A stretch of 64,000 nucleotides of DNA. Source: Clostridia bacterium (GTDB lineage Bacteria > Bacillota > Clostridia > Oscillospirales > CAG-272). The stretch is taken from NCBI GenBank assembly GCA_017482055.1, contig JAFUOH010000013.1:3416-67415 (forward strand). The letters are read 5' to 3'. The position numbers and the translations under genes were made by a program. The stretch's first letter is position 1, and every line of letters starts with the position of its first letter. The notes beneath the pieces were generated by a model, which was given only the letters and a program-made list of their open reading frames with translations, ran no database searches and was not told the DNA's origin. Shown here one piece after another: positions 1 through 21,009 of this stretch.

Positions 1-1056
1 CGCCACCTTCTTCTCGCCCAAGCTCTGCAAATCAAGCTCATCGGTAGATGTCAGCGTTGCAAGGCTTTCAAGGTTAAACTTTTCAAGTCTTGCCGCAAGA
101 GTGATCTGAATCGACTTTAAGGTTTTTGCGGAACCCGATCTGTACGCCTTGTAATACTTCAAGGCGATATGCGCAGGGTTATCTGTCTCAAGCATTCCAA
201 ACAGATCATCAAGTGCGCTGCCTGCGGCTTCATTCTCCTCGTCAATGTCACCCGCGCGCAGAAGCTCCATAACCATTGGGAAGTTCTGCTCCTCGGGCGG
301 TGCTTCATATCTCAAATAGAAGATTAGCGCAAGCAATAGCATTGAAGCCGCCGTATCCCAAAATGGGTCGTTGCTCTGACTTCCCTTGGGGGTGGTGGAC
401 TTGAACAGATTAGTTACAAGTCTCTGCACGTCGTTGTCACTCTCAATATACTTGAAAGGATTGTATCTGTCCGATCTTTCCATATTGATAAGGTCAAGCA
501 CACGGACTTCATATCCTTTTTCTTTGAGCAGACCGCCCGTGTCTCTCAAGATCTCACCCTTGGGGTCAAGCACCACAAACGAAGTGTTCGCTTGCATAAT
601 GTTCGGCTTGGCATAGAAGCGTGTTTTACCCGCACCACTACCACCGACCACCAACGTGTTGAAGTTGCGACGGTGAAGCTTGGCGTTATATCCAATGCTT
701 ACGTTTTGCGTTAAGACCTTATTGTTTTCCTCGGGAGCTTGGTGATACTTCTTGTTGATCTCCTTTGCTTCACCCCACTTAGCCGAACCGTGTTCTTCAC
801 GGCGGCGGTAGTTGGGTTTGGTATAGTGATAGACAATAAGGATCAAACCGTATATTGCGGTAAACACCACAATACAGGGCAAGGTCACATCACACCAAGT
901 AAAGCGAAAGGGATGCGAAAAAGCATCCCCCATCTTTGGAATCATTACCGGAAGTCCGCCACCGAGCGTCGGTGCGATCAGAACTGCAAGCCAAACGGGT
1001 ACAAGCAATCCCACCGCACCGACAATAAGCCATAGCTTTTTATTATCGTTCTTCAC
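1..1056 (-). CDS. Type IV secretion coupling protein (VirD4/TraG/TraD family), N-terminal 352 codons; continues beyond the left edge
   Basis: Not in the ORF track because it has no stop in the window. My minus-strand translation gives (V)KNDNKKLWLIVGAVGLLVPVWLAVLIAPTLGGGLPVMIPK...CIVVFTAIYGLILIVYHY (two TM helices). It continues ...RRNFNTLVVGGSGAGKTRFYAKPNIMQANTSFVVLDPKGE (Walker A at about 617-640). The frame stays open to position 1. The start is uncertain: GTG at 1056 or TTG at 1092. The ATG at 1033 is in a different frame that closes after 41 codons. Confidence 0.85.
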   Translation of the reverse strand, partial: MKNDNKKLWLIVGAVGLLVPVWLAVLIAPTLGGGLPVMIPKMGDAFSHPFRFTWCDVTLPCIVVFTAIYGLILIVYHYTKPNYRRREEHGSAKWGEAKEINKKYHQAPEENNKVLTQNVSIGYNAKLHRRNFNTLVVGGSGAGKTRFYAKPNIMQANTSFVVLDPKGEILRDTGGLLKEKGYEVRVLDLINMERSDRYNPFKYIESDNDVQRLVTNLFKSTTPKGSQSNDPFWDTAASMLLLALIFYLRYEAPPEEQNFPMVMELLRAGDIDEENEAAGSALDDLFGMLETDNPAHIALKYYKAYRSGSAKTLKSIQITLAARLEKFNLESLATLTSTDELDLQSLGEKKVA

Positions 1057-1228
1057 GGTCTCTCTTTTTGCTCTTTTTTGTAGGTGCGTCAATGACCTTC
1101 AAGAGCACTTCATTGACGTCCTCGGTAGGCTTATTCGCAGCGATAAAATCGTTCCGTCTGTCCGCGAGTGCCTCCATCATCACGCGATGCTGAAAATCAT
1201 CGACCTCGATCACTCTGCGCTCATTCAT
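1043..1228 (-). CDS. Small conjugative-element protein, 61 aa, function unknown
   Basis: ORF of 61 aa. Its start shares one base with the stop of the upstream gene (TGATG). Weakly similar to the 55-aa ORF at 38354-38521 (F..RV..EAL..R......L..DA). Ends in ...KKRDREER. Confidence 0.55.
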   Translation of the reverse strand: MNERRVIEVDDFQHRVMMEALADRRNDFIAANKPTEDVNEVLLKVIDAPTKKSKKRDREER

Positions 1229-2178
1229 CAGCGTTCCTCCCTATTTTTGCTCCCTTTGTTCGGATTCTGCTGCTCCTTGGTCTGAGTCTGCTCAAGAGAC
1301 TCAATCATTCGGGCGGTGATGGTCTTGACATTACTGTGAACGTCACCGAGCACCTTCTTTACGTCCTCTGCCTCCATCGTTTCAATATTCTGAGGAATAC
1401 CGTAAACGTCAACGGTGCGAGTATCGACACCGTATCTCTGAGAGATCACGTAAGCGGAACATCTTGCCGCAAACTCATGCTCACCGATGCGGTAGTTCTC
1501 CACGTCCTTTGCCATTTCCGCGTGGGCAAGAGCTTTTGCAAGCGCCGGGAAGATCGCATCGAACTCCAAGCCTGCCTTGAAGTAGACAACCTTGTTCTTA
1601 GCATCGTAGATCGCATTGTGTTCGCCAAGACTTTTCTCTGCCTTGCAAACGGGAACGGGAGCATCGTGAACAAGAGCCGCAACGAGCTGTTTCTGCTCAT
1701 AGGACTTCGGCTGAGGAAGTGCATCTTCGGGAGCTTCTACGTCGGCAATGTCAAAGACGTGTTTTGCATTATATCCTCTGTGCATCTTTCCGTCGTTTCC
1801 CTTATAGGGGGAAGGCTCCAAGATCATAATGCTCTTTGCACCTTTCTTGACGGAAATATCCTCCTTGTTCCAAGCAGCCAATTCCTTTAACTTAACCGCA
1901 TCGGGCTTCTGCTCAAAGATAAGCAACGCATTGTTCAGCGAATACTTATCGAAACGGCTCTGCACGTTGAGAAACTGACGCAGGCTCTCTATGCTCGATA
2001 CTGCATTGAGGCAAGCATCGTCGATCATAGCATAGCACTGATTTTTCTTCTCTGCCATGCGCTCGGCAAAGCTCTTTTTGCCCTCTCCCTCGTCGGCAAC
2101 TTCAACCGATTCGGGTGGGACATTATTGACTTCATTTTTCTTGTTGGCTTCATTGATTACGTTTTCAAATACGCTCAT
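1228..2178 (-). CDS. Hypothetical conjugative-element protein with a possible ArdC-N-like (ssDNA-binding) module
   Basis: 316-aa ORF. The segment RFDKYSLNNALLIFEQKPDAVKLKELAAWNKEDISVKKGAKSIMILEP follows the pattern I recall for the ArdC N-terminal domain (YS..N..L...Q ... W ... V.KG.K.I.I). It is related to the N-terminus of the giant ORF at 21009. The family call is recollection-based. Confidence 0.45.
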   Translation of the reverse strand: MSVFENVINEANKKNEVNNVPPESVEVADEGEGKKSFAERMAEKKNQCYAMIDDACLNAVSSIESLRQFLNVQSRFDKYSLNNALLIFEQKPDAVKLKELAAWNKEDISVKKGAKSIMILEPSPYKGNDGKMHRGYNAKHVFDIADVEAPEDALPQPKSYEQKQLVAALVHDAPVPVCKAEKSLGEHNAIYDAKNKVVYFKAGLEFDAIFPALAKALAHAEMAKDVENYRIGEHEFAARCSAYVISQRYGVDTRTVDVYGIPQNIETMEAEDVKKVLGDVHSNVKTITARMIESLEQTQTKEQQNPNKGSKNREER

Positions 2179-2189
2179 TCTGTTTTACC

Positions 2190-2990
2190 TTACCTTTCTT
2201 TCGGTTTACTTCCCTTGCTCTTGCCGAGTTCGGGAGTCTTGGTTGTTTCCTTGGGTCTCTCGCTTCTCTTGCGATTGATCTCCTCTAACTTTTTTCTTAC
2301 GGACGGCTTACGGTCTGACTTGCCCTCGCTCTTATCATCAGATCTTTCGGGATTTTTGGTAGCCGTCGAGGATGGCTCGGACGGAAGGTTTCTTTCGGGT
2401 TCCGTTCCCTCCGGCACCCTCGTAGTTTCCGTCCGAGCCGCAGTAGGGTTTTCCATTTCGTTCTCCTCCTTTTGGATAGGCTTGCCAAGGATCTCATCGG
2501 CAAGCTTCTCGTCGGCACTCTTTTCGGGTTTGTCGTTTTCGGGAACGTCGGTCTTTCCTTCGTCCTTTTCGATCTCCTCTTTTTCACGAATGATCTCTGC
2601 GCGAAGGTCAGCCGTATTGACTCTTGCAAGATTGAATCGCTCGGTAATTCGTGCGATCTTGCTCTCGTCCTCTGCTCTGACCATAACGTCAAAGACACCG
2701 CCCGTTTTGTCTTTTTCCTTCAGCACGGTGTAGAGGATACCGTACTGCTTGGCGACCTCTTTGAATTTCGGCAGGTCGCTATCCCTAAAGGTGTAAACCT
2801 TCAAGGGCTTTCCGCTTCGGAGCATACTTTCAAGTCTCGCGGCTCCCTTTGTTTTCTTTTGCTCACGAGCAATCGAATACAAAAGAACAGCGGCGTTCTT
2901 CGCACCGCTACCCGAGAGCTTGACAAGAACCTCCGCGCCGTTCAGCATCATCCTCATGACCTGATCAGCAGCTTCTCCGGATGTGTTCAT
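2190..2990 (-). CDS. pcfB: PcfB family protein (DUF3801-like)
   Basis: The N-terminal 130 aa (QVMRMMLNGAEVLVKLSGSGAKNAAVLLYSIAREQKKTKGAARLESMLRSGKPLKVYTF...YGILYTVLKEKD) match the PcfB pattern seen next to relaxases in Firmicutes elements. The C-terminal half is low-complexity and charged. There is a 4-nt ATGA overlap with the relaxase stop. Confidence 0.7.
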   Translation of the reverse strand: MNTSGEAADQVMRMMLNGAEVLVKLSGSGAKNAAVLLYSIAREQKKTKGAARLESMLRSGKPLKVYTFRDSDLPKFKEVAKQYGILYTVLKEKDKTGGVFDVMVRAEDESKIARITERFNLARVNTADLRAEIIREKEEIEKDEGKTDVPENDKPEKSADEKLADEILGKPIQKEENEMENPTAARTETTRVPEGTEPERNLPSEPSSTATKNPERSDDKSEGKSDRKPSVRKKLEEINRKRSERPKETTKTPELGKSKGSKPKER

Positions 2991-4321
2991 CTCTTGTCCT
3001 CTCTTTCGTTAGTTTTTGTTTTCGCATCGTTGGTATCTCTCCTTTGAAGATTCTTGTCGGGAATGTGAATCGTGTTGACCACCGCCTCAACAACACCGCT
3101 TCTTGCCGCAATGTCCTCGCAGAGTTTCATCTGCTTTCGTAGATCTGCCATCTGCGAAGATAACTCTGAGATCTCGTCCTTTATCGGTTGCATCGTCTCG
3201 GTATCGTGCATACGGCGAAGCTTGTTGCGGAGCTTGGCTCTCTTATATGCGAGTTCCTTAAACTTGTTGGATAACCCCTCGGTAAACAAAGAAAGCTCCT
3301 CGGCAGTATTGATGTTATACTTACCAAGAAGCTTTGCTTCCTCCGAATACATACGCGCACGTTTCACATCTTCCTTGATAACCGCGTATGCTTCACGATT
3401 ATTCGGTCTTTCTTTTGGCAGAGCACCAAGAAGATAACAATAATGGATATACAACGCATACAGACCTTTCGGTTTTTCTCTCGGCACATACGCCATATAC
3501 GGAATGACACGACGATTTCTCGCGTTATCTATGATTCGCTCCTTCACATCCTCCAAGGTGTATCCCTCTCCGAGCTTATCCATACGGAAGAACTTTTTAC
3601 TCGCGTCGGGACGTATGCGAAGATACTGCCCTCTCCACTCAAGCGTGTATCCGAGTGCTTGAAAAAGGTTCTCGAACATTCTGAAACTCGTACTGTGCTT
3701 GATTGCAATATCCATATCCCGACGTATGATTCCTCGCACGGTCGGTCTACCTTCTTGCTCGGCTTTGAGCTCACCGATGTGTCGGGTCTTTCCCCTCTGT
3801 GGGTTCTTGATTACGGATAGTCCGTGCTCTTGACACAATCGGTCGGAAACCTCGCGCATCCTGCGGTAGTTATCTCCGTCAGCATGAAATCTTCGTCCAT
3901 CAAAACCCGTCGCACATATCGCGTAGTGGTTATGAACGTGTCGGGTATTGAGGTGGGTTGTGACAAGCACCGGAAAGTTTTCTCCCCACATTTCTTTTGC
4001 GAAGGCGATACCGATAGCGTGTGCGGTTTTCGGATCGACTTCATCTTCCGCAAAGCTCTGATAGGCGTGATAGGCAACGCGATCCGAGTTGGTGGGATAG
4101 GTTGAAAGATTTTTGTTCATCACACTCAAAACATTTTCGGGTGTGCAACCTATTCCCGTAACGTACAACCTCTGCTCTGTTTTACTCTCATCGGCATCAT
4201 ACCAAATAAGATTTTTGAGAGCTTCGCTTGTTTCGTTCTCGGTGGTCTTATCGAGATCACAGACATACTCAATCAGTTGTCGGAGTCGTTCCTTGACCGC
4301 CCATATCTTCGTTGTAGCCAA
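2987..4321 (-). CDS. MOB relaxase (MobA/VirD2-type relaxase/mobilisation nuclease domain)
   Basis: N-terminal MATTKIWAVKERL..., then a YHAYQSF (catalytic Tyr region) and the His-rich metal motif THLNTRHVHNHYAI. The start codon is TTG at 4321, with GAGGTG 9 nt upstream. It overlaps the MobC 3' end by 53 nt. Confidence 0.85.
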   Translation of the reverse strand: MATTKIWAVKERLRQLIEYVCDLDKTTENETSEALKNLIWYDADESKTEQRLYVTGIGCTPENVLSVMNKNLSTYPTNSDRVAYHAYQSFAEDEVDPKTAHAIGIAFAKEMWGENFPVLVTTHLNTRHVHNHYAICATGFDGRRFHADGDNYRRMREVSDRLCQEHGLSVIKNPQRGKTRHIGELKAEQEGRPTVRGIIRRDMDIAIKHSTSFRMFENLFQALGYTLEWRGQYLRIRPDASKKFFRMDKLGEGYTLEDVKERIIDNARNRRVIPYMAYVPREKPKGLYALYIHYCYLLGALPKERPNNREAYAVIKEDVKRARMYSEEAKLLGKYNINTAEELSLFTEGLSNKFKELAYKRAKLRNKLRRMHDTETMQPIKDEISELSSQMADLRKQMKLCEDIAARSGVVEAVVNTIHIPDKNLQRRDTNDAKTKTNEREDKR

Positions 4322-8028: not shown

Positions 8029-8081
8029 TTCATTCACCTCAATAAAATTATATCACAAAAAAAGATTGATTCTAACTGTTC

Positions 8082-8849: not shown

Positions 8850-8861
8850 ACTATCTCTCCG

Positions 8862-8904
8862 TCAAATTCTTATTTTCCTAACTGTTCGACCTATTGGAAT
8901 TTGT
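8862..8904. repeat. 43-bp cassette-junction repeat, copy 1
   Basis: TCAAATTCTTATTTTCCTAACTGTTCGACCTATTGGAATTTGT, identical (43/43) to 9980-10022. It lies between the stop of the MBL gene and the start of the phosphorylase gene. On the coding strand it has 7-bp terminal inverted repeats, CAAATTC...GAATTTG. Confidence 0.9.
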
Positions 8905-9492: not shown

Positions 9493-9532
9493 AACAAACC
9501 TCCATTCGTCAAATTGGAATTTGGAGAACTGT

Positions 9533-9967
9533 TTACAATCTTTTCTTGAAGCAGATGATACGATTTGCTTCATCAAATCCCATTGCCATATGGAATTTGA
9601 AACTATCAATATTGTCTATCTCACAATCACTGGCAAACTCGCTGCATCCAATTTCTTTTGCCCATATTTCACAAGCTAAAAGGAGCTCTTTTGCATATCC
9701 GTTCTTTCGGTATTCCTCTTTTACGAAAATACCTTCCAAGTAACCCACAGGAGAACTTTCTGTGCCTTCGACATAGTCAGTTCTCAAACCGCATTGCGCA
9801 AATCCTACGGGCAAATCATTTATATACTTGATAAAAAATGCAGATTGCTTGTCATTAAGTGTTTCAGCAAACTCTGCTTCTAATTCATCAACAGTATGAC
9901 TATCCCACATTTGAACAGCCATTTCTGCCAAAACACGACTGTCCCCATTTATTGCTATTCTAACCAT
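9533..9967 (-). CDS. aac(6'): Aminoglycoside 6'-N-acetyltransferase, AAC(6')-I type (GNAT)
   Basis: LRTDYVEGTESSPVGYLEGIFVKEEYRKNGYAKELLLACEIWAKEIGCSEFASDCEIDNIDSFKFHMAMGFDEANRIICFKKRL aligns closely with the AAC(6')-Iy/Ic subfamily as I recall it (IRHDYVNGCDSSPVVFLEGIFV...GCREMASDT..EN..S...H.ALGFEE.ERV..YRK). Confidence 0.85.
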   Translation of the reverse strand: MVRIAINGDSRVLAEMAVQMWDSHTVDELEAEFAETLNDKQSAFFIKYINDLPVGFAQCGLRTDYVEGTESSPVGYLEGIFVKEEYRKNGYAKELLLACEIWAKEIGCSEFASDCEIDNIDSFKFHMAMGFDEANRIICFKKRL

Positions 9968-9979
9968 TGAAACACCTCA

Positions 9980-10022
9980 TCAAATTCTTATTTTCCTAAC
10001 TGTTCGACCTATTGGAATTTGT
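9980..10022. repeat. 43-bp cassette-junction repeat, copy 2
   Basis: Identical to 8862-8904. It lies between the stop of the Lnu-like gene and the start of aac(6'). Degenerate or partial copies occur at 7132-7156 (22/25 over the right arm), 9493-9532, 8038-8081 and 10520-10550. Confidence 0.9.
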
Positions 10023-10024
10023 CG

Positions 10025-10519
10025 TTATCTATACTCATTTGGAACTTCGATATGAAATGTCTCACACAATAACTTCACATCATGTACATCATTTTCATCA
10101 AACTCGTATCCGAGATGGAACATTACTTGACTATATGGTTCAATACAGGAAACCTCTATCTCCTCAATTTTTCCTTTACCTGAAAAAATTTCTAACGGAA
10201 AGCAATCCCCCTCATAAAGAATTTCACCTTTGCCTGTATATTCAAAACAATGCAAATCAATAATTCTGTTTTTCGCATCTTCCCATACAGTATGATTCAA
10301 TGTTGTATATTCCATCTTAATTTCATAAAATCCATTAGCTTGTATTATCTCTATAAAATTCTGATAATCTTTCTTTTCTACAAAAATATCAATATCGTTA
10401 TGGCTTCTTGACTGATGTCCAAGAAGTGCATCTACACCCCAGCCGCCATCAAGAAAGACTTTAATCTCCGCATCTATTGCGAATTGAAGAATCTGTCTTA
10501 CATCTGTTATATTGACCAT
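10025..10519 (-). CDS. lnu: Lnu(A)/ANT(2'')-family nucleotidyltransferase, most like lincosamide nucleotidyltransferase Lnu(A)
   Basis: 164 aa. FLDGGWGVDALLGHQSRSHNDIDIFV matches the Lnu(A)/AadB nucleotidyltransferase motif (W.DGGWGVD.L.G.Q.R.H.DIDI). The C-terminal CIEPYSQVMFHLGYEFDENDVHDVKLL parallels Lnu(A). Confidence 0.75.
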   Translation of the reverse strand: MVNITDVRQILQFAIDAEIKVFLDGGWGVDALLGHQSRSHNDIDIFVEKKDYQNFIEIIQANGFYEIKMEYTTLNHTVWEDAKNRIIDLHCFEYTGKGEILYEGDCFPLEIFSGKGKIEEIEVSCIEPYSQVMFHLGYEFDENDVHDVKLLCETFHIEVPNEYR

Positions 10520-10686: not shown

Positions 10687-13600
10687 TTATCTGTCGGTAC
10701 GATCAGATCTCGTTCTGCTGTTCTCGTCGCGCTCATCCTCGCTCTGCTCCTCTGCGCCGTCAACGATCTCGTTCTCTCGCTTATCCATATTCAGCTCAGC
10801 ATTGAGTTCTGCAAGTCGCTTGCATTTTTCCTCAAGCTCTGCTTCTCTTGCAAAGGGTTTAGCGATCTCCGCCTTCGCGTTCTCGACCTGCTTATGCAGT
10901 TCTTCAAGCTGAAGCTCACAGCCCTGCTTTCGCTTTTCAAAGGCTTCGATAGCATTGTCAAGACGGATAATGATACCGTTAGCATCTTGTCCGAGTGGAA
11001 CTTTGTGAAAGAGTTTTCCTCGCAAATTGATAAAGAACTCTCTACCAAAGGTATCAAATCCAATCTCCATTTTGAAACCACGATATTCACCAAGAGGTCT
11101 TTCGTCGGGCGAGTTGATGCGCTCACATACAGCGAGGATCGCCTTACCCGCTTCTGCCTTTTCGGTATAGGTCGTGCCCATAACTTCCATCGGGGAGAAT
11201 CCGTTTTCATTCGGGAACGTGGAGTTCTTTGCGGTTTCAATATCCTCGATCAAGCACTTAATTCTCTCCTCTTGGTCGGCAATATTCCTCGGGAACTTCT
11301 TGATAAGAGCGTCCTCAAGGCTGTACCTCTGACTCAAGTGATCTGCCTTTTGAAGCTTCAGTTTTGCAACGTCGGCATCAAGCTGCATCTTCTCCATAAT
11401 CTTCGGATTGCCGCTTGCAAGAGCCTTGATCTCCGCATAGGATAGGGCGGTCTCGTCCACGTCCTCTGCACTTCTTACCGGAGATTTACTCGTCATAATC
11501 TGCGAAATAAACTTCTGTTTGCTCTCAAGAAGCTGATAGGAATAGGCGTCGAAGGTTCCCTCCGTAACGTAACGGTAAAGGTCAACCTCGGGGTTGGAGT
11601 TTCCTTGTCGGACAATTCGACCTGCTCTCTGTTCAAGGTCAGCGGGTCTCCACGGAACGTCAAGGTCGTGAAGTGCAATGAGTCTCTGCTGCACGTTTGT
11701 GCCGGCTCCCATCTTGAAGGTTGAACCCATAAGCACTCTGACTTGTCCACGGCGAACCTTGGCAAAAAGTTCTTTCTTCTTTGTGTCGGTATCTGCCGCG
11801 TGAATGAAAGCGATCTCCTCGGGCGGTATTCCCCGCTCAATGAGTTTATTTCTGATGTCATCATAAACATTGAAGCTGCCGTCATCCTTCGGTGTGGAAA
11901 GGTCGCAGAACACAAGCTGTGCCGCCTTTTTATCCGCATACTTTTCCCAAATCTCGTAGATGTTCTGAACGCAAGTGTTGACCTTACTTCCATCATAATC
12001 TCCAAGACCAATATCGACAAGTCGCTGATCAAGTGCAGCCTTTCGTCCGTCGTTTGTGATGAGAAGCATATTGTCCTCTGTTGAGCTTACCATACGGTTG
12101 TGAACCCTTTCGGCTCTCTCCGCAAAGGACTCAACGAGTTCTTTCTGCTCCTCACTTGCTTCGACCTTGACGATGTGGTAGTGCGCTTCGGGTACGGGAA
12201 GTTTGAGCATATCTGCGGTCTGAATGTCCGCCGTCTGCTTAAACATTGCCATCAGCTCGGGGATGTTAAAGAACTTTGCAAAGCGTGTCTTTGCTCGGTA
12301 TCCGCTACCATCGGGTGCAAGCTCTATTGCCGTTACCGTCTCGCCAAAGGTCGATGCCCAAGCATCAAAATTGAGAAGTCCGCGCAACTGAAGCTCATCG
12401 TACTGAAGGTATTTCTGCATCGTGTAAAGCTCTACCATCGTATTGGAGATAGGCGTACCCGTTGCAAACACACAACCCTTTCCTCCTGTCAGTTCGTCAA
12501 GATAACGACACTTCATATAGAGGTCGGAGGATTTCTGTGCTTCGGTCTGTGAGATACCTGCTACGTTTCGCATCTTGGTATATGCCGCGAGGTTCTTATA
12601 GAAGTGTGCCTCGTCCACAAACAGACGGTCAACGCCAAGCTCCTCAAAGGTCACGACGTCATCCTTTCGGCTTTGGTCATTGAGCTTTGCAAGTTTTGTC
12701 TCGATCTGCTTTCTCGCTTTGGCGAGCTGCTTGACGGTTACTCTGTCTCCTCTTGATGCTTGGATCTCCTCAATACTTTGCAGTATTTGGTCACGCTCAT
12801 TGTTAAGCGTTTCGATCTGTCTCTCAAGGGACATCGGGATCTTCTCAAACTGTGAGTGACCGATGATAACAGCATCGTAGTCACCCGTAGCAATTCTTGC
12901 ACAGAACTTCTTACGGTTTTTGGTTTCAAAGTCTTTCTTGGTAGCGACAAGGATATTTGCGCTCGGATAGAGTTGCAGATATTCACTTGCCCACTGTTCA
13001 ATAAGATGGTTGGGAACAACAAACATACTCTTGTTACAGAGTCCGAGTCTCTTGCTCTCCTGCGCCGCCGCAACCATCGTAAAGGTCTTACCTGCACCGA
13101 CAACGTGTGCAAGGAGTGAGTTACCGCCGTACATAATTCTTGCCACGGCATCGCTCTGATGCTTTCTCAAGGTAATCTCGGGGTTCATACCAAAGAACTT
13201 GATGTGGCTACCGTCAAACTCACGGGGGCGAATACTGTTGAAACGCTCGTTATAGAGCTTACAAAGTCTCTCTCGCCTTGCCGGGTCTTTCCATATCCAC
13301 TCGTCAAACGCTCTCTTGATCTGCTCCTGCTTACCTTGTGCAATTGCAGTTTCCTTTTTGTTGAGGACTTGCTTTTTGTTTCCGTTCTCGTCAATCGGGT
13401 AATCAAAGATACGCACGTCCTTGAGGTTCAAGCTCTCCTCGATGATCTCATAACCGTTGATTCGATGAGTACCGTAAGCGTTTACCGCCTTGACATTTCC
13501 TCTGTCTCTTGTCTTATTGGTTATGACCCATTGTGAGGTCTGCGGAATGAATTTGACCTCGATAAGCCTTCTCATATAGAAAGGCGTTCCGAGCAATTCG

Positions 13601-16600
13601 TGGACGAAATCTTGAATATCCTCTTGCGGTATCCAAGTGGAACCGAGTCGTACACCGATCTCGGCAGCACTCAGATCTTCGGGCTGTACCTTCTCAAGTG
13701 CTTCTACGTTATCCGCAAATGCGGGGTCTGCTTCGGCTTTCCATTTGGCTTCCTTGAGCTTTTCTCGCACGTTACCCGAAAGGTATTCGTCAGCCATAAG
13801 GTAAGGTCTTGCGCCGATCTTTTCGCCGTGCTCGGGGTTGCGGAAGATAACGCCCTTGAGGTCGGAGAACAATTCCTCCTCGCTCTTGCCCGTCAGTTCG
13901 CTCATATACTCCATATCCACCATAGCTCGCTCACCCATAGAGAGTGCAAGAGCTTCGCTTGCCGTGTCCACTCGGTCAACCGTGACCTGCGGCTTGATGG
14001 TTCGCTTGGTGAACATATCCGCCTTTGCTTTGAGTTCCTTGTTTTCATCAAGTATCTCAAGAGAACAAAGGAGGAAATAGGAGTTATCGTCGCTGAACAC
14101 CATCGCGTTTCCTCGGCTATTGATAAGTCCATACTTTGCAGTAAACTCATCATACTGCTTATTGAGTTTCGCTTGGAGTTCTTTGATCTCGCTCTCGGGG
14201 TAATCCTCAAGCTGCGCTTCGATCAGAGCCTTCACCGTGTCTCGGATACCGATCATACCCTTGATACGGTTCTCGCCCGTTACCGAAGTCTCGACGGGGT
14301 TCATAACGCTGTTCTGTCGGTAGTACACCTTTCCGTCTACAATCGTAAAGGAAAAGTTCTTCACGGTCGGGTCTGCGGGAATGGATTTGTCCTCTGTTCC
14401 CTCTGTCAGTTCGTCAAGCTCAACCTCGCTGATCTCTGCGTGGATATTGCTGATTGCTTCTGTCAAAAGCTCTCCGAGATCTTCGTCCTCATAAGGCTTG
14501 CAGGTGGGTTCTGGTCCATAGGGACCGGAACGCATCACTACCTCACCGAGCACCATATCGGGGTGGTCGATAAAGTATTGGTTCATCTTGATTCCGTTTT
14601 CATCGGTTCCAAGGTGTACCCAATCCTCGTCTCTCTCGATAATTCGATCTCGCTTTTGGAGGAAGATAATATCCGACACGACCTTGTTCGCGCCTGCTCC
14701 GTCAAAGGTATTGTTGGGCAGACGGATAGCACCGAGGAAGTCGGCTCTCTGCGAGATATACTTTCTGACAGACGAGTTCTCTTTGTCAAGAGTACCCGAG
14801 CTTGTGATGAAAGCGATCACACCACCGGGGCGAACCTTATCCAAGGTTTTCGCAAAGAAATAGTCGTGAATGAGGAAGTTGTACTTGTCGTACTTCTTGT
14901 CAAGGAGCTTGAAATCATTGAACGGCACGTTACCGATTGCAACATCAAAGAAGCTATCGGGGAAATGAGTTTTCTCATATCCGTCGATGGTGATACCATT
15001 CTTCTGATAGAGCTGCCTTGCAATTCTACCCGAAAGGCTATCAAGCTCAACACCGTACATCTTGGCATCCATACTCTCTGGGATAAGACCCATAAAGTTA
15101 CCGACACCGCATGAAGGCTCAAGCACGTTTCCTCTCTTAAATCCCATATTCTCAAGAGCGCTATACATCGCCTTGATAACAACGGGCGGCGTATAAAAAG
15201 CCGTCAAAGTCGATTCTTTGGCGGCTTCATATTCTTCGGGAGAGAGTGTGGTGTAAAGCTCGGTAAACTCCGAGTGCCAATTATCTTTGGTCTCATCAAA
15301 GGCATCGGCAAGACCGCCCCAACCCGAATACTGTGCAAGTATCTCTTGCTCCTCGGGTGTTGCCAAACGGTTATCGAACTCAAGCTCGTGCAAGAGGTTG
15401 ATCGCCGCGATGTTCTTTCGGAACTTCTCTTTTGCTCCACCCATTCCGATCTCGTTATCGGTAATGCGGTAGTTGTGCTTTTCGCTATCGGGTATCTCAG
15501 GATGCGTGTTATACACGGGCAAAGTCTTTCTCGGCTTTTCCTTCTCGACAAGCTGCGGAATACCCATTCCGTATTTCTCATTGTACTGTTCAATAAGATC
15601 ATCCGAAACCGAAATCAGCGCATCAAACACAAGATTGTTCAGCTCGTATTCGATCAGATCGTGAAGTGAATCATATTTGCTTACCTCTACGATGTCATCG
15701 GCAAGGTATTTCTCAATCTTGAAATCCACAAGGTTTACGACAACTTGGATGGGAATTTCATCATCGGTAATAGTCGTATAACCGATACCGATGTTTGTCA
15801 GATCGGAAAAATCCACCGATTCGGAATTGTACTCCTCAGCACAATAATCCTCAATGAGCTTCTTTGCGACCTCAAGCTCGGTCGGTTCCCTACTCGGTAC
15901 TCGCTCGATGTGTGGCTCTGCTTTTTCGGCTCTGTCGGCTGCTCTTTCCTCGGGGGGTCTGTCATCGTTCAGTATCGGATATCTTGAGAACAGAAGGCTG
16001 ATATTGCCCTTATCCAAATACTTTTCAAACTCATAGCGATCCATACTGACCGCTTCTTGCCCGGGTTCACTCGGCATCGTATACCAAATGTCGTGCTCGT
16101 CTATGCGCTCGATCTCAAGGTGAACTCCGTCTTTTCCCTCAAAGGAGGCAAATAGCGTGTCACCCTCGTGGTACTCTTTACCGTTTTCGGTAGTAAAGAT
16201 ATTGGCTTCGGCAAAACCGTTAACCCTCTGAAAACCATTGAGATCTTTCAAAGCTTCGCTATGCTCGGCATAACGGAAGATCTGACCGTTACTTCCGATG
16301 AACTGTCCCGTGACATTATCAAAAATGCCTTGGATGCCACCTTCAAACGGCAGACGCCGGAGTGAGAAACGATGGGTAACCTCTCCCTTAAGACGAGGTT
16401 TCTCCACCTGCTCAAGTTCTTCCGCAATGGAGATAAGCTCCTCTCTTGCTTCTGTACCAAAGCCGTGGTAGTAATACTCATCCAATAAGAAACGCTTTGC
16501 AACATCATGGAAGTCCTCATCACCGACATCAACAAGTGTCTGCCTTGCTTCGGAACCGAGCTTATCAAAGAATACGCTGTAATCCTCATTCTCCTTGAGC

Positions 16601-19600
16601 GCGATGATCTGCTCAAAGGTGACTACGTTCTCAACAAACTGTCCACCTGCTGTGCTATCGGGATTAAAATAGAGCCAAGTTACCTCGCCCTTTTCTTCGT
16701 CCACATAGAAACGGTCATCGCTGAAGCGATACTCATACAAGCGCAGTATTTCTTTTCCATCAGCGGGTAAGATCTCCGCGATCTCCTCGTCGGTGTAGCT
16801 CTGATTGGCTTTCGGCTTTTCCTTGATTGCAAACTCCTTATCTTCCTCTGCGATAACCACCTTAAAGCCTTTATCTTGGAGCTTTTGCAGATACTTATCC
16901 AAGGTGTGATAAGGAAATCCGCACATAGGAACTCTTGTAGGTCTGTCGGGTACGCTTCTGCCCGTAAGTGTAAGCTCAAGGGCGTCGGATGCTTCTACTG
17001 CATCTTGGTCAAGAAGCTCATAGAAGTCTCCTACTCGGATAAGCGCCATTCGGTCGGGATAGTGAGTTTTCGTAATCGTAAATCTTTCCCAAACATCGGT
17101 CTTTGCGGGAATGGAAAGTTTTTCAACGTCGCTCTCCAAAAGGATTTCTTCTGCTTCTTCATCTTCATTCATAAGAGAAGCGAAAATCTCCTCGGTTCTC
17201 TGCTCGTGCTCGATCTGCGGCAAGATCTTTTCAATCTCACTCTTACAACGGTCAAAGCTATCAAGGTACTGATTTGCATTGCGGTGACGTCTCATATCAA
17301 TAAGTCTGTCATTCTCGATGGCAGACTCAAGACCCGTAACATACCCCAAGATATTCGGGATAGAGGTCTTTTTGAGTATCTTTTCGGGTATGCGCTTTGC
17401 CTGCTCTTTGCACCATTGGTAGGTCTCATTCGATTGATAGATCGCAAGTGCTACCTTTGCAGCTTCACGGATAAGATCTGCATTTGCCACAAAGTTTTGC
17501 GGCACTTCGGGCGGTATCTCGCGGTCGAAAATATCGGGGAGATTATCTTCTCCGACAAGCTCAAGAATCTGTCGGCGGTAAGATATGATATGGTTACGAA
17601 CCAAATTCATATTGACGCCATCTTCCCAAAAGGGATCGCCCGAACCTTCGGCTTTAATCTGATTCCACCTTGCGTAAGACTCCTCCATCTTTGCCACAAG
17701 TGCATCAACCGACGGCTCGTTCTTTTTACCCTTGCGCGTCTGCTTAGGCGGTGTTCCCGGCTTCGGCTTTTCCTCCTTAAACTCTACCTTTGGAGCAGGT
17801 CGGGGTTCTTTCAGAAGTCCGTCATTCAGCGGGTTTTCACGGATACGCTTAAGGAAGGTATCAAGCTCCATTTCAAGAGGAATGAGTGTACCGTCAAAGA
17901 GCTCCACCTTATCTCCTGCAAGTGACAAAATCTCATATTCGTCCTTGCCGATGTGTACGGTCACACCAAGGTGCAGATCGTACTCTGTGTCGGGTAATTC
18001 TTCGATGATAGGCTCGTTTACCTCTGCGACGGGTTCTTGCACTACTTCCTTCTTCTCGGGCGCAAAGGGCGTTTTCTTGCGGTAGGGAGAGCCGGGAAAC
18101 AGATTATATCTGCCCTCGGAATAATCCTTTACGGTATCAAGGGTTTGCTTATCTCGGTTATAACTTTCCGTGCCCGGGAACTGTTTGTCCAAGGCTTCTT
18201 GCATCATATCTATGATCTCAAGCAAGCGGTCTTTATTCTCGATCTGTTTTGCAATATCGTTGACAGCAATCCAAAAATCTGTCGTTTTATAAACGTCATA
18301 AGGATAACGCACGTCAAGCATCTTGTCCGAATAGAAGTTTTTGATCTTCCAACCAATATCCTTCCTTTCGTAGCTATCCATTTCGGCTTTGTCCTCATCG
18401 GACAGATATACGCCTTTACGGATAAGCTCGTCGATACGCTTTGCCACCTGCGACCATTTAAGGTGCATACCCGTGTTACCGCTACGAAGTCCACCGTAGA
18501 TCACCCAACCTTTAGGACTATGGTCATCCCCGATTCTACCGCCCGAGGAACCTCCCGTACCGAAACTGTCCGAAAGATGCTTGGCTCTTTTGGTGTTATC
18601 TTTCTCTCTCAAGAAGAAAGAATAATGCTTGAGTTTGGTATCCGTTCCTTTTTCAAGTAGCGCCGCATCGAACTTGTCTTGTGTGACAAACTGCTTGGGA
18701 GGGAGAATATACGGGTCTGCTTCGGGAAAATCGATAGGCTCTCTTAGGTGCATTTCCAAGTAAGACATATACTGCTCTGCGTTTTCCAAATAGCGAAAAC
18801 GCGGAGGATATTTTTCAAGCAAAGGCATTCTTGCTCTCAATTCTCTTACTTGCTGTGCTCCCTTTTCGGGATCGTTCAAATTCTTCGCAAATAACTCTCT
18901 CGCCTCGTAATACATCAAGTTCGGCTTAAGCCAAAACTTTTGCTCGTCGGGGATCTCTCCAAACACATCGCCAAGCAAGGTGCGAACCTTATCCGAGATA
19001 AGATCACACCATACCTCTTTTGCCTTTTCTGCTTCTTGCTGTGAGAGATATTGACCCAAGTTCATCAGTTCTCTGACTCGCTTGTCAACAATATCCCAAG
19101 GTATCAGCACGGAACTGTATTCCGATACTCTATCTCCGGTAGATATGCGGATACCCGCATCATCCCATTTAGCGGAATAGTTCTTATCGTTAACCGTAAT
19201 ACCAACACTATCGCTCTGATATTCGCGGCGCAGATAAGGAATCGTTTCTTCGCTGCCTTTGGCTCTGCGATAATACTCATAAATTCGCATATTGCTATTT
19301 CGGGTACAACCGCCAAGCCTTAACAGCTCGTCGATAACCTCCTGCGAGATACGCATCTGACTTGTGCTATCTGCTTTCTCTTGGGGAGTGCTTTCTGCTG
19401 CCGTCTGTACCTCGGGCATATCCATATCAAAGAGAGACATTTGGTGATCTTCCTTGACCACGGGCTTTTCAAGGTAATTCTTATCGGTGATAAGTGCCTC
19501 AACAAGTCTTGTGACAAATGCCCAATCCATACGGTTCTCCGCCGTTCTCGACGTGAAGCTACCCGTATAGAGAAGCAGGCTTTCATCATCGGCTCTGTAA

Positions 19601-21009
19601 CCGAGATGATCTTCTGTTCCCTGCTTGTAGAACTCCGCAAAAAGTAAAGGCGGGTATGCACTCTTTACATACTCCGCCTTTTCTGCGTCGCTCTTATCTG
19701 AAGTTAAAAAAGACACGATTTCTTCCTTGCTGTGTCGCAAGTAGTCACCGTGTCTTAAGATTTGGATGAGACTTTCGGGGTCGCTGATCTCGGGAAGTGT
19801 GCTGTCACTTATGCGTAGATTAGGGACGTCAACACTTCTTCCTCTGCTGAATTCTTGATCGAGTTCATCATCTGTACCCACTGCATCGGATTCTCTGCTT
19901 TCAGCTTCTCCGATACCCCAAGGCTCTGTGCCATCCGGGATATACTCTCCGAGATCTGTGCTTTCGCCGTCTCGTCGATCTCGTGAAGATAACTGTTCAG
20001 CCTGCCCTCGGTCAGTATCGTCGTGTACGTTCCCTTTCGGTGCTGTTTCAAGAAATTCAATCTCATCTGACCGTACTTCCCGATTGTGTGGTTCGTCTGC
20101 TCGGGCAGCTCCAAGTTCGGGATCTGTACTCCGTTCTGTGTCCTGTAAGTCAACGTCATTGATATTACCTCCGTTTCGATTTAGTGTTTCTGCTTTACCG
20201 CCATTATTATACTCGGTTTCACTTTTACCGTCAAATGTGCGATTTTCTCTTTGGATGCTTTTCTCAACACTCTTTACCGTCCTCTCGATCTCTCGCAGAC
20301 AAATCTCGGAAATATCGCTTGTAGCGGTTCCGAGAATGTTTACGGTCGCAGGGGTGTTAAACTCATGCACCCATTCAAAGCTCTCTGCACCAACAAACGG
20401 CTCTGCATTGAAGCCGAGACGGGTAAGCACCGTATAAGCAACACTCGCTTGCACGGTAACAAGAAATCTCACGCGGAGATTATCTTCGTCATACTCCTCA
20501 AGAAAGCTTCCCTCCTTTTCGTAGGAAAGCTCATGCAGATAATCCGTAATGTTATCCGCACCGAGATTGATTGCGGCGGCGATGACCGCATCACTGATCT
20601 TTTCTCTTTGCTTTTCATCGTCGATAAACCGATTCTGCAAAGCTTCGATAATATCTCCTTCGTATTCGGGTTTGATACCCCAAATATCGAAAGGCTTGTT
20701 ATCGCGGTCGTGTGTGTCGCTGACATCGAAAACGTACTTGAGGTAGTTCTTATCTCCTCGTCCGTCGATCAGAGCGATACCCGTTGCTCCTCGTTTCACC
20801 CACCGTCCAAAGTGTTGATTCCACAACTGCGTTTCCGCACACGCGGTCGCATAGGGTCTTTGTGCGTAGATAAGCACTTGGTCTGCAAACGGGTATTTGT
20901 ACTGATACGCTGCCGAGTGCAAAAAAGCTCTCCACGCCACCGAGTCCGATGTGATGTCTTTTATCGTCCGCTTATACAGTTCGGTAATCAAGTCTATTTT
21001 TCTCGGCAT
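10687..21009 (-). CDS. Giant polyvalent conjugative-element protein (3,440 aa): ArdC-N-like module, MutS-domain-I-like module, N6-adenine DNA methyltransferase, SNF2/DEAH helicase, coiled-coil C-terminus
   Basis: Single uninterrupted ORF with ATG at 21009 and AAGGAG 8 nt upstream. Motifs located on the DNA:
- RVGDFYELL (17011-17031, aa 1327).
- MTase motif I LEPSCGVGNF and motif IV NVPF (14920-14931, aa 2027).
- Helicase Walker A HVVGAGKTF (13081-13107).
- DEAH box LFVDEAHF (12601-12624).
- Motif VI QRAGRIVRQGN (11599-11631). Confidence 0.9.
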   Translation of the reverse strand: MPRKIDLITELYKRTIKDITSDSVAWRAFLHSAAYQYKYPFADQVLIYAQRPYATACAETQLWNQHFGRWVKRGATGIALIDGRGDKNYLKYVFDVSDTHDRDNKPFDIWGIKPEYEGDIIEALQNRFIDDEKQREKISDAVIAAAINLGADNITDYLHELSYEKEGSFLEEYDEDNLRVRFLVTVQASVAYTVLTRLGFNAEPFVGAESFEWVHEFNTPATVNILGTATSDISEICLREIERTVKSVEKSIQRENRTFDGKSETEYNNGGKAETLNRNGGNINDVDLQDTERSTDPELGAARADEPHNREVRSDEIEFLETAPKGNVHDDTDRGQAEQLSSRDRRDGESTDLGEYIPDGTEPWGIGEAESRESDAVGTDDELDQEFSRGRSVDVPNLRISDSTLPEISDPESLIQILRHGDYLRHSKEEIVSFLTSDKSDAEKAEYVKSAYPPLLFAEFYKQGTEDHLGYRADDESLLLYTGSFTSRTAENRMDWAFVTRLVEALITDKNYLEKPVVKEDHQMSLFDMDMPEVQTAAESTPQEKADSTSQMRISQEVIDELLRLGGCTRNSNMRIYEYYRRAKGSEETIPYLRREYQSDSVGITVNDKNYSAKWDDAGIRISTGDRVSEYSSVLIPWDIVDKRVRELMNLGQYLSQQEAEKAKEVWCDLISDKVRTLLGDVFGEIPDEQKFWLKPNLMYYEARELFAKNLNDPEKGAQQVRELRARMPLLEKYPPRFRYLENAEQYMSYLEMHLREPIDFPEADPYILPPKQFVTQDKFDAALLEKGTDTKLKHYSFFLREKDNTKRAKHLSDSFGTGGSSGGRIGDDHSPKGWVIYGGLRSGNTGMHLKWSQVAKRIDELIRKGVYLSDEDKAEMDSYERKDIGWKIKNFYSDKMLDVRYPYDVYKTTDFWIAVNDIAKQIENKDRLLEIIDMMQEALDKQFPGTESYNRDKQTLDTVKDYSEGRYNLFPGSPYRKKTPFAPEKKEVVQEPVAEVNEPIIEELPDTEYDLHLGVTVHIGKDEYEILSLAGDKVELFDGTLIPLEMELDTFLKRIRENPLNDGLLKEPRPAPKVEFKEEKPKPGTPPKQTRKGKKNEPSVDALVAKMEESYARWNQIKAEGSGDPFWEDGVNMNLVRNHIISYRRQILELVGEDNLPDIFDREIPPEVPQNFVANADLIREAAKVALAIYQSNETYQWCKEQAKRIPEKILKKTSIPNILGYVTGLESAIENDRLIDMRRHRNANQYLDSFDRCKSEIEKILPQIEHEQRTEEIFASLMNEDEEAEEILLESDVEKLSIPAKTDVWERFTITKTHYPDRMALIRVGDFYELLDQDAVEASDALELTLTGRSVPDRPTRVPMCGFPYHTLDKYLQKLQDKGFKVVIAEEDKEFAIKEKPKANQSYTDEEIAEILPADGKEILRLYEYRFSDDRFYVDEEKGEVTWLYFNPDSTAGGQFVENVVTFEQIIALKENEDYSVFFDKLGSEARQTLVDVGDEDFHDVAKRFLLDEYYYHGFGTEAREELISIAEELEQVEKPRLKGEVTHRFSLRRLPFEGGIQGIFDNVTGQFIGSNGQIFRYAEHSEALKDLNGFQRVNGFAEANIFTTENGKEYHEGDTLFASFEGKDGVHLEIERIDEHDIWYTMPSEPGQEAVSMDRYEFEKYLDKGNISLLFSRYPILNDDRPPEERAADRAEKAEPHIERVPSREPTELEVAKKLIEDYCAEEYNSESVDFSDLTNIGIGYTTITDDEIPIQVVVNLVDFKIEKYLADDIVEVSKYDSLHDLIEYELNNLVFDALISVSDDLIEQYNEKYGMGIPQLVEKEKPRKTLPVYNTHPEIPDSEKHNYRITDNEIGMGGAKEKFRKNIAAINLLHELEFDNRLATPEEQEILAQYSGWGGLADAFDETKDNWHSEFTELYTTLSPEEYEAAKESTLTAFYTPPVVIKAMYSALENMGFKRGNVLEPSCGVGNFMGLIPESMDAKMYGVELDSLSGRIARQLYQKNGITIDGYEKTHFPDSFFDVAIGNVPFNDFKLLDKKYDKYNFLIHDYFFAKTLDKVRPGGVIAFITSSGTLDKENSSVRKYISQRADFLGAIRLPNNTFDGAGANKVVSDIIFLQKRDRIIERDEDWVHLGTDENGIKMNQYFIDHPDMVLGEVVMRSGPYGPEPTCKPYEDEDLGELLTEAISNIHAEISEVELDELTEGTEDKSIPADPTVKNFSFTIVDGKVYYRQNSVMNPVETSVTGENRIKGMIGIRDTVKALIEAQLEDYPESEIKELQAKLNKQYDEFTAKYGLINSRGNAMVFSDDNSYFLLCSLEILDENKELKAKADMFTKRTIKPQVTVDRVDTASEALALSMGERAMVDMEYMSELTGKSEEELFSDLKGVIFRNPEHGEKIGARPYLMADEYLSGNVREKLKEAKWKAEADPAFADNVEALEKVQPEDLSAAEIGVRLGSTWIPQEDIQDFVHELLGTPFYMRRLIEVKFIPQTSQWVITNKTRDRGNVKAVNAYGTHRINGYEIIEESLNLKDVRIFDYPIDENGNKKQVLNKKETAIAQGKQEQIKRAFDEWIWKDPARRERLCKLYNERFNSIRPREFDGSHIKFFGMNPEITLRKHQSDAVARIMYGGNSLLAHVVGAGKTFTMVAAAQESKRLGLCNKSMFVVPNHLIEQWASEYLQLYPSANILVATKKDFETKNRKKFCARIATGDYDAVIIGHSQFEKIPMSLERQIETLNNERDQILQSIEEIQASRGDRVTVKQLAKARKQIETKLAKLNDQSRKDDVVTFEELGVDRLFVDEAHFYKNLAAYTKMRNVAGISQTEAQKSSDLYMKCRYLDELTGGKGCVFATGTPISNTMVELYTMQKYLQYDELQLRGLLNFDAWASTFGETVTAIELAPDGSGYRAKTRFAKFFNIPELMAMFKQTADIQTADMLKLPVPEAHYHIVKVEASEEQKELVESFAERAERVHNRMVSSTEDNMLLITNDGRKAALDQRLVDIGLGDYDGSKVNTCVQNIYEIWEKYADKKAAQLVFCDLSTPKDDGSFNVYDDIRNKLIERGIPPEEIAFIHAADTDTKKKELFAKVRRGQVRVLMGSTFKMGAGTNVQQRLIALHDLDVPWRPADLEQRAGRIVRQGNSNPEVDLYRYVTEGTFDAYSYQLLESKQKFISQIMTSKSPVRSAEDVDETALSYAEIKALASGNPKIMEKMQLDADVAKLKLQKADHLSQRYSLEDALIKKFPRNIADQEERIKCLIEDIETAKNSTFPNENGFSPMEVMGTTYTEKAEAGKAILAVCERINSPDERPLGEYRGFKMEIGFDTFGREFFINLRGKLFHKVPLGQDANGIIIRLDNAIEAFEKRKQGCELQLEELHKQVENAKAEIAKPFAREAELEEKCKRLAELNAELNMDKRENEIVDGAEEQSEDERDENSRTRSDRTDR
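19809..20159 (-). CDS. TnpV-like ORF (116 aa) embedded in the +1 frame of the giant ORF; expression unproven
   Basis: ATG at 20159 is preceded by GGAGGT with an 8-nt spacer. The translation is MTLTYRTQNGVQIPNLELPEQTNHTIGKYGQMRLNFLKQHRKGTYTTILTEGRLNSYLHEIDETAKAQISESISRMAQSLGVSEKLKAENPMQWVQMMNSIKNSAEEEVLTSLIYA. It follows the TnpV family pattern I recall (..Y....G.Y..P.L.LPE.....IGKYG..R..YLK.HR...Y..L...G.L..HL.E.D..A......M....GV.E.LKA...M.WV..MN.I...AEE.V...LIY). Confidence 0.5.
   Translation of the reverse strand: MTLTYRTQNGVQIPNLELPEQTNHTIGKYGQMRLNFLKQHRKGTYTTILTEGRLNSYLHEIDETAKAQISESISRMAQSLGVSEKLKAENPMQWVQMMNSIKNSAEEEVLTSLIYA

Follow-up and report, generated by a model that had tools for sequence, protein, structure and literature searches.

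The 64,000-nucleotide window analysed here, positions 3,416 to 67,415 of contig JAFUOH010000013.1 from a Clostridia bacterium (assembly GCA_017482055.1), carries part of a conjugative element, and on its minus strand lies one very long open reading frame (ORF) of 3440 codons at 10687..21009. The product, referred to below as the giant protein, is likely to be a polyvalent conjugation protein in which an ArdC-N-type head, a MutS-I domain and an LPD36-N6-adenine methyltransferase (MTase)-SWI2/SNF2 block of DarB-like type are joined, encoded by a single genuine gene and acting on DNA that enters a new cell. By analogy with characterised proteins, it is predicted to counter restriction by methylating the transferred DNA. 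At least ten separable modules were delimited within the uninterrupted frame, which places it among polyvalent proteins (2-15 domains); they are listed below with their coordinates, strand, position in the protein in amino acids (aa) and the comparison by which each was recognised.

10687..21009, minus strand: whole gene for the 3440-aa polyvalent protein, with the stop codon at 10687-10689
20260..21009, minus strand: ArdC-like N-terminal module, aa 1-250 (AlphaFold2 model, Foldseek, remote sequence matches)
19780..20259, minus strand: acidic, Gly/Ser/Pro-rich linker, aa 251-410 (composition)
19465..19779, minus strand: triplicated unnamed domain, copy 1, aa 411-515 (hhalign, AlphaFold2 model)
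19015..19377, minus strand: triplicated domain, copy 2, aa 545-665 (phrog_38613, of unknown function, E 7.6e-13; hhalign, AlphaFold2 model)
18355..18702, minus strand: triplicated domain, copy 3, aa 770-885 (hhalign, AlphaFold2 model)
17815..17982, minus strand: small, strongly conserved unnamed beta domain plus helix, aa 1010-1065 (AlphaFold2, alignment)
17110..17799, minus strand: variable helical cassette, aa 1071-1300 (elsewhere mostly stand-alone proteins of ~190 aa)
16822..17100, minus strand: MutS domain I with Phe-X-Glu motif, aa 1304-1396 (Pfam, NCBIfam, PDB MutS)
15910..16812, minus strand: second variable cassette, unnamed, aa 1400-1700 (relatives' alignment)
15520..15894, minus strand: recurrent unnamed module, aa 1706-1830 (recurrence elsewhere; weak phrog_30550 match)
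15220..15477, minus strand: LPD36-like helical domain before the MTase, aa ~1845-1930 (G(W/F)GG at aa 1896-1899)
14680..15219, minus strand: gamma-class N6-adenine MTase core, aa 1931-2110 (Pfam, motifs, partial PADLOC matches)
13210..14700, minus strand: conserved DarB-like region between MTase and helicase, aa 2104-2600 (phrog_10089, E 1.9e-110)
11488..13185, minus strand: SWI2/SNF2-type superfamily 2 (SF2) ATPase, aa 2609-3174 (Pfam, NCBIfam, motifs)
10690..11487, minus strand: conserved DarB-like C-terminal region with a helical charged tail at its end, aa 3175-3440 (phrog_10089, E 6e-29)

The frame opens with an ATG placed 8 nt downstream of GAAGGAG, a good ribosome-binding site, and runs unbroken to its stop, as had been described for this 10.3-kb ORF in the first-pass annotation of the sequence. 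By exact-sequence look-up, 12 independently assembled metagenome contigs in ENA were found to encode a 3440-aa protein identical to it, and collinear full-length relatives of 3427-3440 aa were found at 70-96% identity; a stop-free run of 3440 codons would arise by chance, at this base composition, with a probability of ~1e-76. The frame is thus not an artefact of assembly or frameshifting, and the giant ORF is a genuine single gene, which answers the check for frameshifts or stops splitting it into several genes that had been proposed at the outset. That the ORF could be a mis-assembly, or several genes fused through sequencing errors, is an idea for which only its unusual length speaks; it is refuted by the 12 independent copies and the collinear relatives, and we give it practically no credence.

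The modules named in the first-pass annotation were recovered in the order and at about the coordinates originally given. Whole-protein Pfam searches matched MutS_I, an Eco57I-type MTase, SNF2-related/ResIII and Helicase_C, and the catalytic motifs were all intact and conserved among relatives. The profile scan of tiles that had been called for was run with Pfam on tiles of 250-500 aa (E<=10) and returned nothing credible in aa 1-1300, 1394-1850 and 3171-3440.

The MTase-helicase dyad lies in the C-terminal half. Motif and module counts, here and below, were taken over the 120 best relatives (2234-3617 aa), mapped onto the giant protein. The MTase core gave an Eco57I-type Pfam match at aa 2015-2089 and partial matches to PADLOC orphan and type II MTase models, and carries the TP helix cap FYTPP (aa 1938; 109 of the 120 relatives), motif I EPSCGVGNF (aa 1964; EPSCG-G-F in 114 relatives and EPACG-G-F in the other 6) and motif IV GNVPF (aa 2026; 117 relatives), NVPF in place of NPPF being the family norm. 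That motif I precedes motif IV by 62 residues, without an intervening target-recognition domain, fits the gamma class, and TP cap, motif I and an NPP(Y/F)-type motif IV follow one another as in EcoKI/TaqI-like MTases. An orphan gamma-class N6-adenine MTase with LEPSCGVGNF and NVPF motifs, as first proposed, is what the sequence holds, and no partner restriction nuclease was found among the neighbouring genes scanned. Directly upstream of the TP helix stands G(W/F)GG, present as GWGG or GFGG in 119 of the 120 relatives and as GWGS in one, so that all 120 fit GxGU, the LPD36 feature of the dyad defined by Iyer and colleagues (PMC5512222); no Pfam model of LPD36 in the local library gave a match.

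Beyond the MTase core, the region at aa 2104-2600 bears the newer families WH_1 (PF28553) and DUF8437 (PF28554) under precomputed Pfam names, and is followed by a SWI2/SNF2 ATPase with intact motifs I, II and VI, joined to the C-terminal side of the MTase, in agreement with the SNF2/DEAH helicase first described. Pfam placed SNF2/ResIII at aa 2612-2809 and Helicase_C at aa 3059-3136, and the motifs are GAGKT (aa 2638; 115/120 relatives), DEAH (aa 2799; 104/120) and QRAGRIVRQG (aa 3127), whose QR-GR core was kept in the ~105 relatives aligning there and whose exact form was found in 38. Every hallmark given for the dyad in PMC5512222 is present in the giant protein and conserved among the 120 relatives. 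The coiled-coil tail earlier proposed for aa 3171-3440 exists as a tail, but it is the conserved C-terminal part of the DarB-like protein (PHROG 10089), present in ~105 of the 120 relatives, and coiled-coil-type Pfam matches were weak noise confined to ~aa 3346-3425.

Searching with tblastn, we found phage proteins named "DarB-like antirestriction" at 39-41% identity over 97-99% of the dyad and phage P1 darB at 26.7% identity (E 5e-21), and by these sequence matches the giant protein is homologous to both. The kinship to known anti-restriction MTase-helicase fusions suggested initially is therefore supported by P1 DarB and by phrog_10089. With P1/P7 DarB and the PHROG 10089 proteins it shares a homologous MTase-SNF2 dyad, the conserved regions flanking it and the same catalytic motifs. 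P1 DarB is however not a close homologue, being just ~27% identical over about half of the dyad; it lacks both the ArdC-N-like head and MutS-I, and it is packaged in the virion and delivered by the capsid rather than by conjugation. Anti-restriction activity has been shown experimentally for DarB only, and a phmmer search of the PDB returned no solved relative of the dyad. In DNA databases, near-identical DNA was not found among PLSDB plasmids, and the sole "phage" DNA matches were GenBank MT835766.1, MT835870.1 and MT839535.1, unannotated human-faecal contigs labelled "Bacteriophage sp." with MTase-helicase homologues of 59-75% protein identity (71% DNA identity for MT835766.1). They probably represent pieces of similar conjugative elements that were wrongly filed as phage, or they may hold real phage DarB-like genes.

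An MTase joined to a helicase could also be a defence or exclusion enzyme of BREX, DISARM or type ISP character, of benefit to the host or to the element, which would mark self DNA and block phages or competing elements. PADLOC and NCBIfam did report matches to DrmD, BrxH, DpdE and PLD-helicase models, but these spanned just ~60-190 residues of the helicase lobes and MTase core and scored at most 43 bits in PADLOC and, for the best NCBIfam model, 67 bits against a cut-off of 1100 (other NCBIfam cut-offs 500-1200). Full-length matches accompanied by partner genes, as for DISARM DrmD/DrmMI, BREX, Dpd or PLD-helicase systems, were not obtained; the neighbours scanned were conjugation and cargo genes with no partner defence genes among them, and Pfam searches of the whole protein and of its tiles found no nuclease domain. 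The ArdC-like head and conjugation-gene context are moreover typical of transferred effectors (PMC5512222), and we regard a defensive function as very improbable.

At the N-terminus, the AlphaFold2 model of aa 1-250 (predicted local distance difference test, pLDDT, 93.8) consists of an alpha+beta ArdC-N-like core at aa ~20-100 followed by a helical domain. Its best PDB fold match by Foldseek was ArdC of plasmid R388 (6sna_A; probability 0.96, E 0.063, TM 0.43), all others having a probability of 0.14 or less. Relative P0223 exceeded the Pfam ArdcN cut-off at residues homologous to the head, ArdcN being matched in just one of 30 N-terminal relatives, and aa 25-99 aligned by BLASTP (E 1e-8, 31% identity) with a 316-aa ORF of the same element at 1228-2178, which itself matched Pfam ArdcN just under the cut-off (E 3.4e-4). 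Since these three indirect lines agree, we accept the head as ArdC-N-like, a remote assignment made from sequence and model which upholds the ArdC-N-like N-terminus of the first-pass annotation by distant evidence, direct Pfam and PDB sequence searches being negative. Like ArdC of pSa/R388 (PDB 6SNA), a single-stranded DNA (ssDNA)-binding anti-restriction protein with a C-terminal metalloprotease, the head combines a helix-plus-beta-hairpin core with an N-terminal position; unlike ArdC, which stands alone, it heads a 3440-aa protein, and its similarity lies below Pfam detection. No HExxH or HxxEH motif was found anywhere in the giant protein, and across 30 relatives no His or Glu is conserved in the helical half of the head. 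That second half is therefore not an active zincin, and the giant protein has neither the protease of ArdC nor the zincin peptidase that is common among polyvalent proteins. The linker that follows is long and charged, as expected, and acidic, the most acidic 100-aa block (aa 301-400) having 28 D/E per 100.

The 250-aa head was also found as shorter proteins of ~250-440 aa, many of them from short contigs and possibly truncated. It further occurs as a ~390-aa protein fused to a TnpV domain (P0135, P0148 and others; plasmid matches H29 and H30), Monoglobus and Cohnella plasmids included. To our knowledge TnpV, a transposon-encoded protein, has no known function, and the fusion may hint at a role in DNA entry.

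The MutS-I module was matched by Pfam at aa 1310-1396 (E 1.1e-18), close to the 16843-17088 (aa 1307-1389) first proposed for it. It aligned with residues 8-102 of E. coli MutS in the PDB (E 3e-14), and GDFYEL, with its Phe-X-Glu motif, is identical in the two; the mismatch-binding GDFYE lies at aa 1327-1331, and GDFYE or GDFFE was present in 91 of the 93 relatives aligning there. NCBIfam MutS models of 793 and 840 positions matched only at positions 2-88 (68-78 bits against cut-offs of 480-642), and unlike the MutS mismatch-repair ATPase the giant protein has domain I alone, without the connector, core, clamp and ABC ATPase of domains II-V.

Retention of the exact mismatch-contacting GDFYEL motif has no obvious part in anti-restriction and would be better explained if the giant protein were instead an establishment, replication or repair-interference factor. 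It would then load on the entering strand, where MutS-I would hide hairpins or mismatches from host MutS and from recombination; the SNF2 motor would clear away host proteins or aid synthesis of the complementary strand, and methylation would serve strand discrimination or the regulation of element genes. A Toprim primase gene ~4 kb from the giant gene, the presence of several modules without anti-restriction precedent, and the proposal of Iyer et al. (PMC5512222) that MutS-I serves to recognise short stretches of ssDNA as the element replicates are in keeping with such a role. Nevertheless, it is the MTase-SNF2 dyad that forms the best-conserved and universal part of the family, and the only experimentally studied relative of that dyad, P1 DarB, is an anti-restriction factor (PMC5512222). 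Establishment and anti-restriction are not mutually exclusive, and we consider a protein devoted to the former in place of the latter to be a plausible, though rather unlikely, alternative.

The architecture as a whole corresponds to that of the conjugative-element polyvalent proteins described by Iyer, Burroughs, Anand, de Souza and Aravind (2017, J Bacteriol; PMC5512222), with examples from Tn1549-like and Tn5253-like elements of Firmicutes. In that survey, ArdC-N was present in 93% of such proteins, typically at the N-terminus; MutS-I was confined to Firmicutes and Bacteroidetes members and co-occurred with ArdC-N in ~80% of cases; and the LPD36-MTase-SNF2 module was the third most common component. 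The giant protein likewise begins with ArdC-N (on remote but convergent support), has MutS-I midway and ends with LPD36-MTase-SNF2, and it shares the Firmicutes lineage and the interchangeable uncharacterised "LPD"-type modules. Its gene also stands beside relaxase and type IV secretion system (T4SS) genes, those for relaxase, a NikA-like accessory protein, DUF3801, Toprim and VirD4/TraG all falling within 11 kb. It differs in having no zincin metallopeptidase, which ~70% of ArdC-N-bearing polyvalent proteins possess, in that no Pfam LPD model matches its ~1300 unassigned residues, and in having in its middle three copies of an unnamed domain, together with two cassettes that only about a quarter of its close relatives possess.

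Taking the mechanism from Iyer et al. (PMC5512222), P1 DarB and ArdC, we suggest that the giant protein would act as the element enters a new cell, which it might reach together with the DNA by way of the type IV secretion channel, or in which it might be produced early from the leading region. Two modules of DNA-binding type, the ArdC-like head and MutS-I, would tether it to incoming single-stranded or partly duplex DNA; once the complementary strand had been made, the SNF2 motor would track along the duplex, and the fused MTase would methylate adenines in cis before resident restriction enzymes could cut the element, which they would then treat as self. The other modules (the triplicated domain, aa 1071-1300 and aa 1706-1830) are probably extra DNA-binding or host-targeting effectors, swapped among relatives. 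Plasmid leading regions were found by Samuel et al. (2024) to be enriched in darB genes and orphan MTases, and the leading-region anti-defence islands of a Gram-positive conjugative element contain darB genes (PMC11541004). Seen from the relaxase accessory gene, the giant gene is 6-16 kb away, in the direction opposite to the relaxase.

Several points weigh against this reading. The anti-restriction role is extrapolated from P1 DarB, a virion protein of just 27% identity that is not a T4SS substrate. Its translocation by the T4SS is pure inference, and its placement on the leading side is conjecture that holds only if the usual arrangement does. The ArdC-N assignment is remote, the Foldseek E-value being just 0.063; Pfam ArdcN was not detected on the giant protein itself even at E<=10, and a profile of 30 N-terminal relatives run against PDB sequences returned no ArdC, giving a chance fumarate-lyase match (E 1.6). 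As there is no zincin peptidase, the autoproteolytic release envisaged for many polyvalent proteins does not apply.

Much of the middle of the protein consists of modules outside the curated families. The earlier statement that a third of the protein has no recognisable family is true for Pfam, but the stretches concerned are conserved, recurrent modules and not unique sequence. In the AlphaFold2 model of aa 411-1070 (pLDDT 81.6), three units of ~100 aa share one succession of secondary-structure elements, with three helices followed by four strands and a final helix. Profile-profile comparison by hhalign related copy 2 to copy 3 (99.0%, E 1e-17), copy 1 to copy 3 (97.3%) and copy 1 to copy 2 (92.7%), and by these comparisons the three domains are paralogues; the triplication is visible by this means only, BLASTP self-comparison having revealed no internal repeats. 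Against the PDB, the model of this region gave no significant fold match, the best being beta-clamp and PUR-repeat folds (probability <=0.44, E >=0.047), and against BFVD all matches had E >=0.025, those with a probability of 0.95-0.98 being small unnamed or uncharacterised phage proteins. The faint resemblance to beta-clamp and PUR-repeat folds, and with it the idea of a PUR/Whirly-like domain, is just a lead. Downstream of these units, the small beta domain at aa 1010-1065 has AlphaFold2 strands at fragment residues 607-638 and invariant columns L604...N652 in alignment A2.

The cassette at aa 1071-1300 was present in ~30 of the 120 best relatives, and gave 814 matches at E<=1e-3 among 1.84 billion representatives, mostly stand-alone proteins of 160-230 aa. 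In 10 sampled proteins the module had no Pfam match; in two of the 10 it was fused, with YodL and DUF6908 in one and with the NrS-1 polymerase HBD (helical domain) in the other. The second cassette (aa 1400-1700) occurred in about 30-50 of the 120, and matches to it were limited to a few fragments; a word-indexed search with aa 1400-1830 gave at least 19 matches. The aa 1706-1830 module recurs in other proteins, adjoining LPD25 or sitting between DUF3848 and DUF3849. LPD11, which some relatives possess (P0108), had no counterpart in the giant protein by BLAST (E 1.9). Tentatively, and as a possibility we would not favour at present, the ~1300 residues without a curated family, made up of the triplicated domain, the small beta domain, the aa 1071-1300 cassette and the aa 1706-1830 module, may be new nucleic-acid-binding or host-targeting effector domains and not passive spacers; on the model, the triplicated beta4-alpha units could for instance form a PUR/Whirly-like ssDNA-binding array coating the entering strand. 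If this were so, gut Clostridia would have in the giant-protein family an unexploited reservoir of new anti-defence activities.

Relatives of the giant protein are numerous. At least 3834 database proteins were related at E<=1e-10, and 111 loci were found in GTDB species representatives, mostly Oscillospiraceae, Eubacteriales or Clostridia gut genomes and including Pseudoflavonifractor, Flavonifractor, Dysosmobacter and Anaerofustis isolates. Two blocks, aa 1 to ~660-1070 and aa ~1820-3440, were common to almost all of the 120 best relatives. Nearly all of these keep the order of N-terminal module and MTase-helicase block, and about 85-93 also have MutS-I; aa 1071-1300 and ~1400-1700 behave as cassettes present in roughly a quarter. 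Its 3440 aa bring the giant protein close to the maximum length seen in its own subfamily. The impression, recorded when the ORF was first noted, that its domain order and size are unusual did not survive this comparison, because of the number of relatives of the same order, their span of 2234-3617 aa and the prior description of the architecture (PMC5512222). The giant protein is a typical member of an already described class and not an oddity, and what is particular to its subfamily is the missing peptidase, the triplicated unnamed domain and the two optional cassettes.

The giant gene lies in an integrative conjugative element of gut Clostridia (Oscillospiraceae/Eubacteriales-type), as its relaxase, coupling-protein, primase and pilus neighbours confirm for the conjugative origin assumed earlier. 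It is placed between a Tad-like pilus/adhesin block and a block of primase, relaxase and coupling-protein genes, and from the left end of the window to ~38.3 kb all genes are on the minus strand and are conjugative-element genes. The neighbouring features are as follows.

1..1242, minus strand: VirD4/TraG-type coupling protein, 5' part, running off the left end of the window (two transmembrane segments, GGSGAGKT Walker A)
1228-2178, minus strand: stand-alone ArdC-N-like protein, 316 aa, between the DUF3801 and coupling-protein genes
2987..4321, minus strand: MobA/VirD2-type relaxase (sequence matches)
4269-4664, minus strand: NikA-like accessory gene, adjoining the relaxase
7156-8037, minus strand: ant(6)-type streptomycin adenylyltransferase, cargo islet
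8082-8849, minus strand: PNP/UDP phosphorylase (PNP, purine nucleoside phosphorylase), cargo islet
8905-9609, minus strand: metallo-beta-lactamase (MBL)-fold protein, cargo islet
9533-9967, minus strand: GNAT acetyltransferase, cargo islet
10025-10519, minus strand: ANT(2'')-like nucleotidyltransferase, cargo islet
24842-28792, minus strand: 1316-aa surface protein with six Listeria-Bacteroides repeats and a MucBP domain, adjoining the pilus block
29646-30056, minus strand: DUF4320, Tad/Flp-type pilus block
31877-33187, minus strand: T2SSE-family (Tad-type) ATPase, pilus block
33924-34736, minus strand: CpaB/RcpC, pilus block
34757-35350, minus strand: A24 prepilin peptidase, pilus block
38739-39204, minus strand: five tRNA genes (Cys, Gly, Phe, Asp, Val) at the border of the element genes

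The coupling protein matched PDB Cag5 (E 1.4e-4), and its full 614-aa gene on locus L078 matched T4SS-DNA_transf, TrwB_AAD_bind and TraG-D_C. VirB4-type genes were not seen inside the window, and the remaining T4SS presumably lies outside it. With its stand-alone ArdC-N-like protein, the element carries two ArdC-N-type modules. Further genes on the left encode DUF3801, which precedes the relaxase along the window, and a DpnD/PcfM-like protein, a Toprim/DUF3991 primase and DUF3848, which come in this order after the NikA-like gene. On the other side of the giant gene come DUF7007 and several unnamed small genes, then the surface-protein/pilus block (24842-35350), which may be a mating-pair adhesion apparatus; ParB comes after the prepilin peptidase along the window. 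The tRNA cluster is followed at 39.4-64 kb by housekeeping genes (Hsp33, lipoate ligase, 2-oxoacid dehydrogenase E1/E2/E3, Lgt, M16 peptidases, ComEC, PFL) with the GC content rising to 0.50-0.55, and from this succession the element is integrated in the chromosome. The cluster is likely to be its integration boundary; no integrase was identified within the window.

Directly downstream of the giant gene, the cargo islet at 7156-10519 (minus strand) stands out by its low GC content (0.38-0.40). Related loci kept the same gene order around the giant gene, with the islet absent or varied: on L001 the Toprim gene is ~2.2 kb downstream of the giant gene, too short a distance for the full islet, and on L079, where the giant gene is identical, genes for MerR/TipAS, GNAT and a methyltransferase replace the phosphorylase and ant(6). 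The site has the appearance of a hot spot for cargo. For the MBL-fold protein, a weak precomputed match to Anti-Pycsar Apyc1 (PF23023) is recorded on the identical locus L078; instead of conferring resistance, it could serve anti-defence by degrading cyclic nucleotides.

We know of no member of the conjugative branch of DarB-like proteins that has been tested experimentally or whose structure has been solved, and a clean functional study of any member would be useful. The locus adds a well-delimited example and a domain map of an abundant protein class and not a new principle. On the conjugative elements of gut Firmicutes, genes for giant polyvalent proteins rank with the most widespread, and here aminoglycoside-resistance cargo directly adjoins one of them; if shielding from restriction is its true function, the giant protein would be one factor in the host range that resistance-carrying elements have within the gut microbiome.

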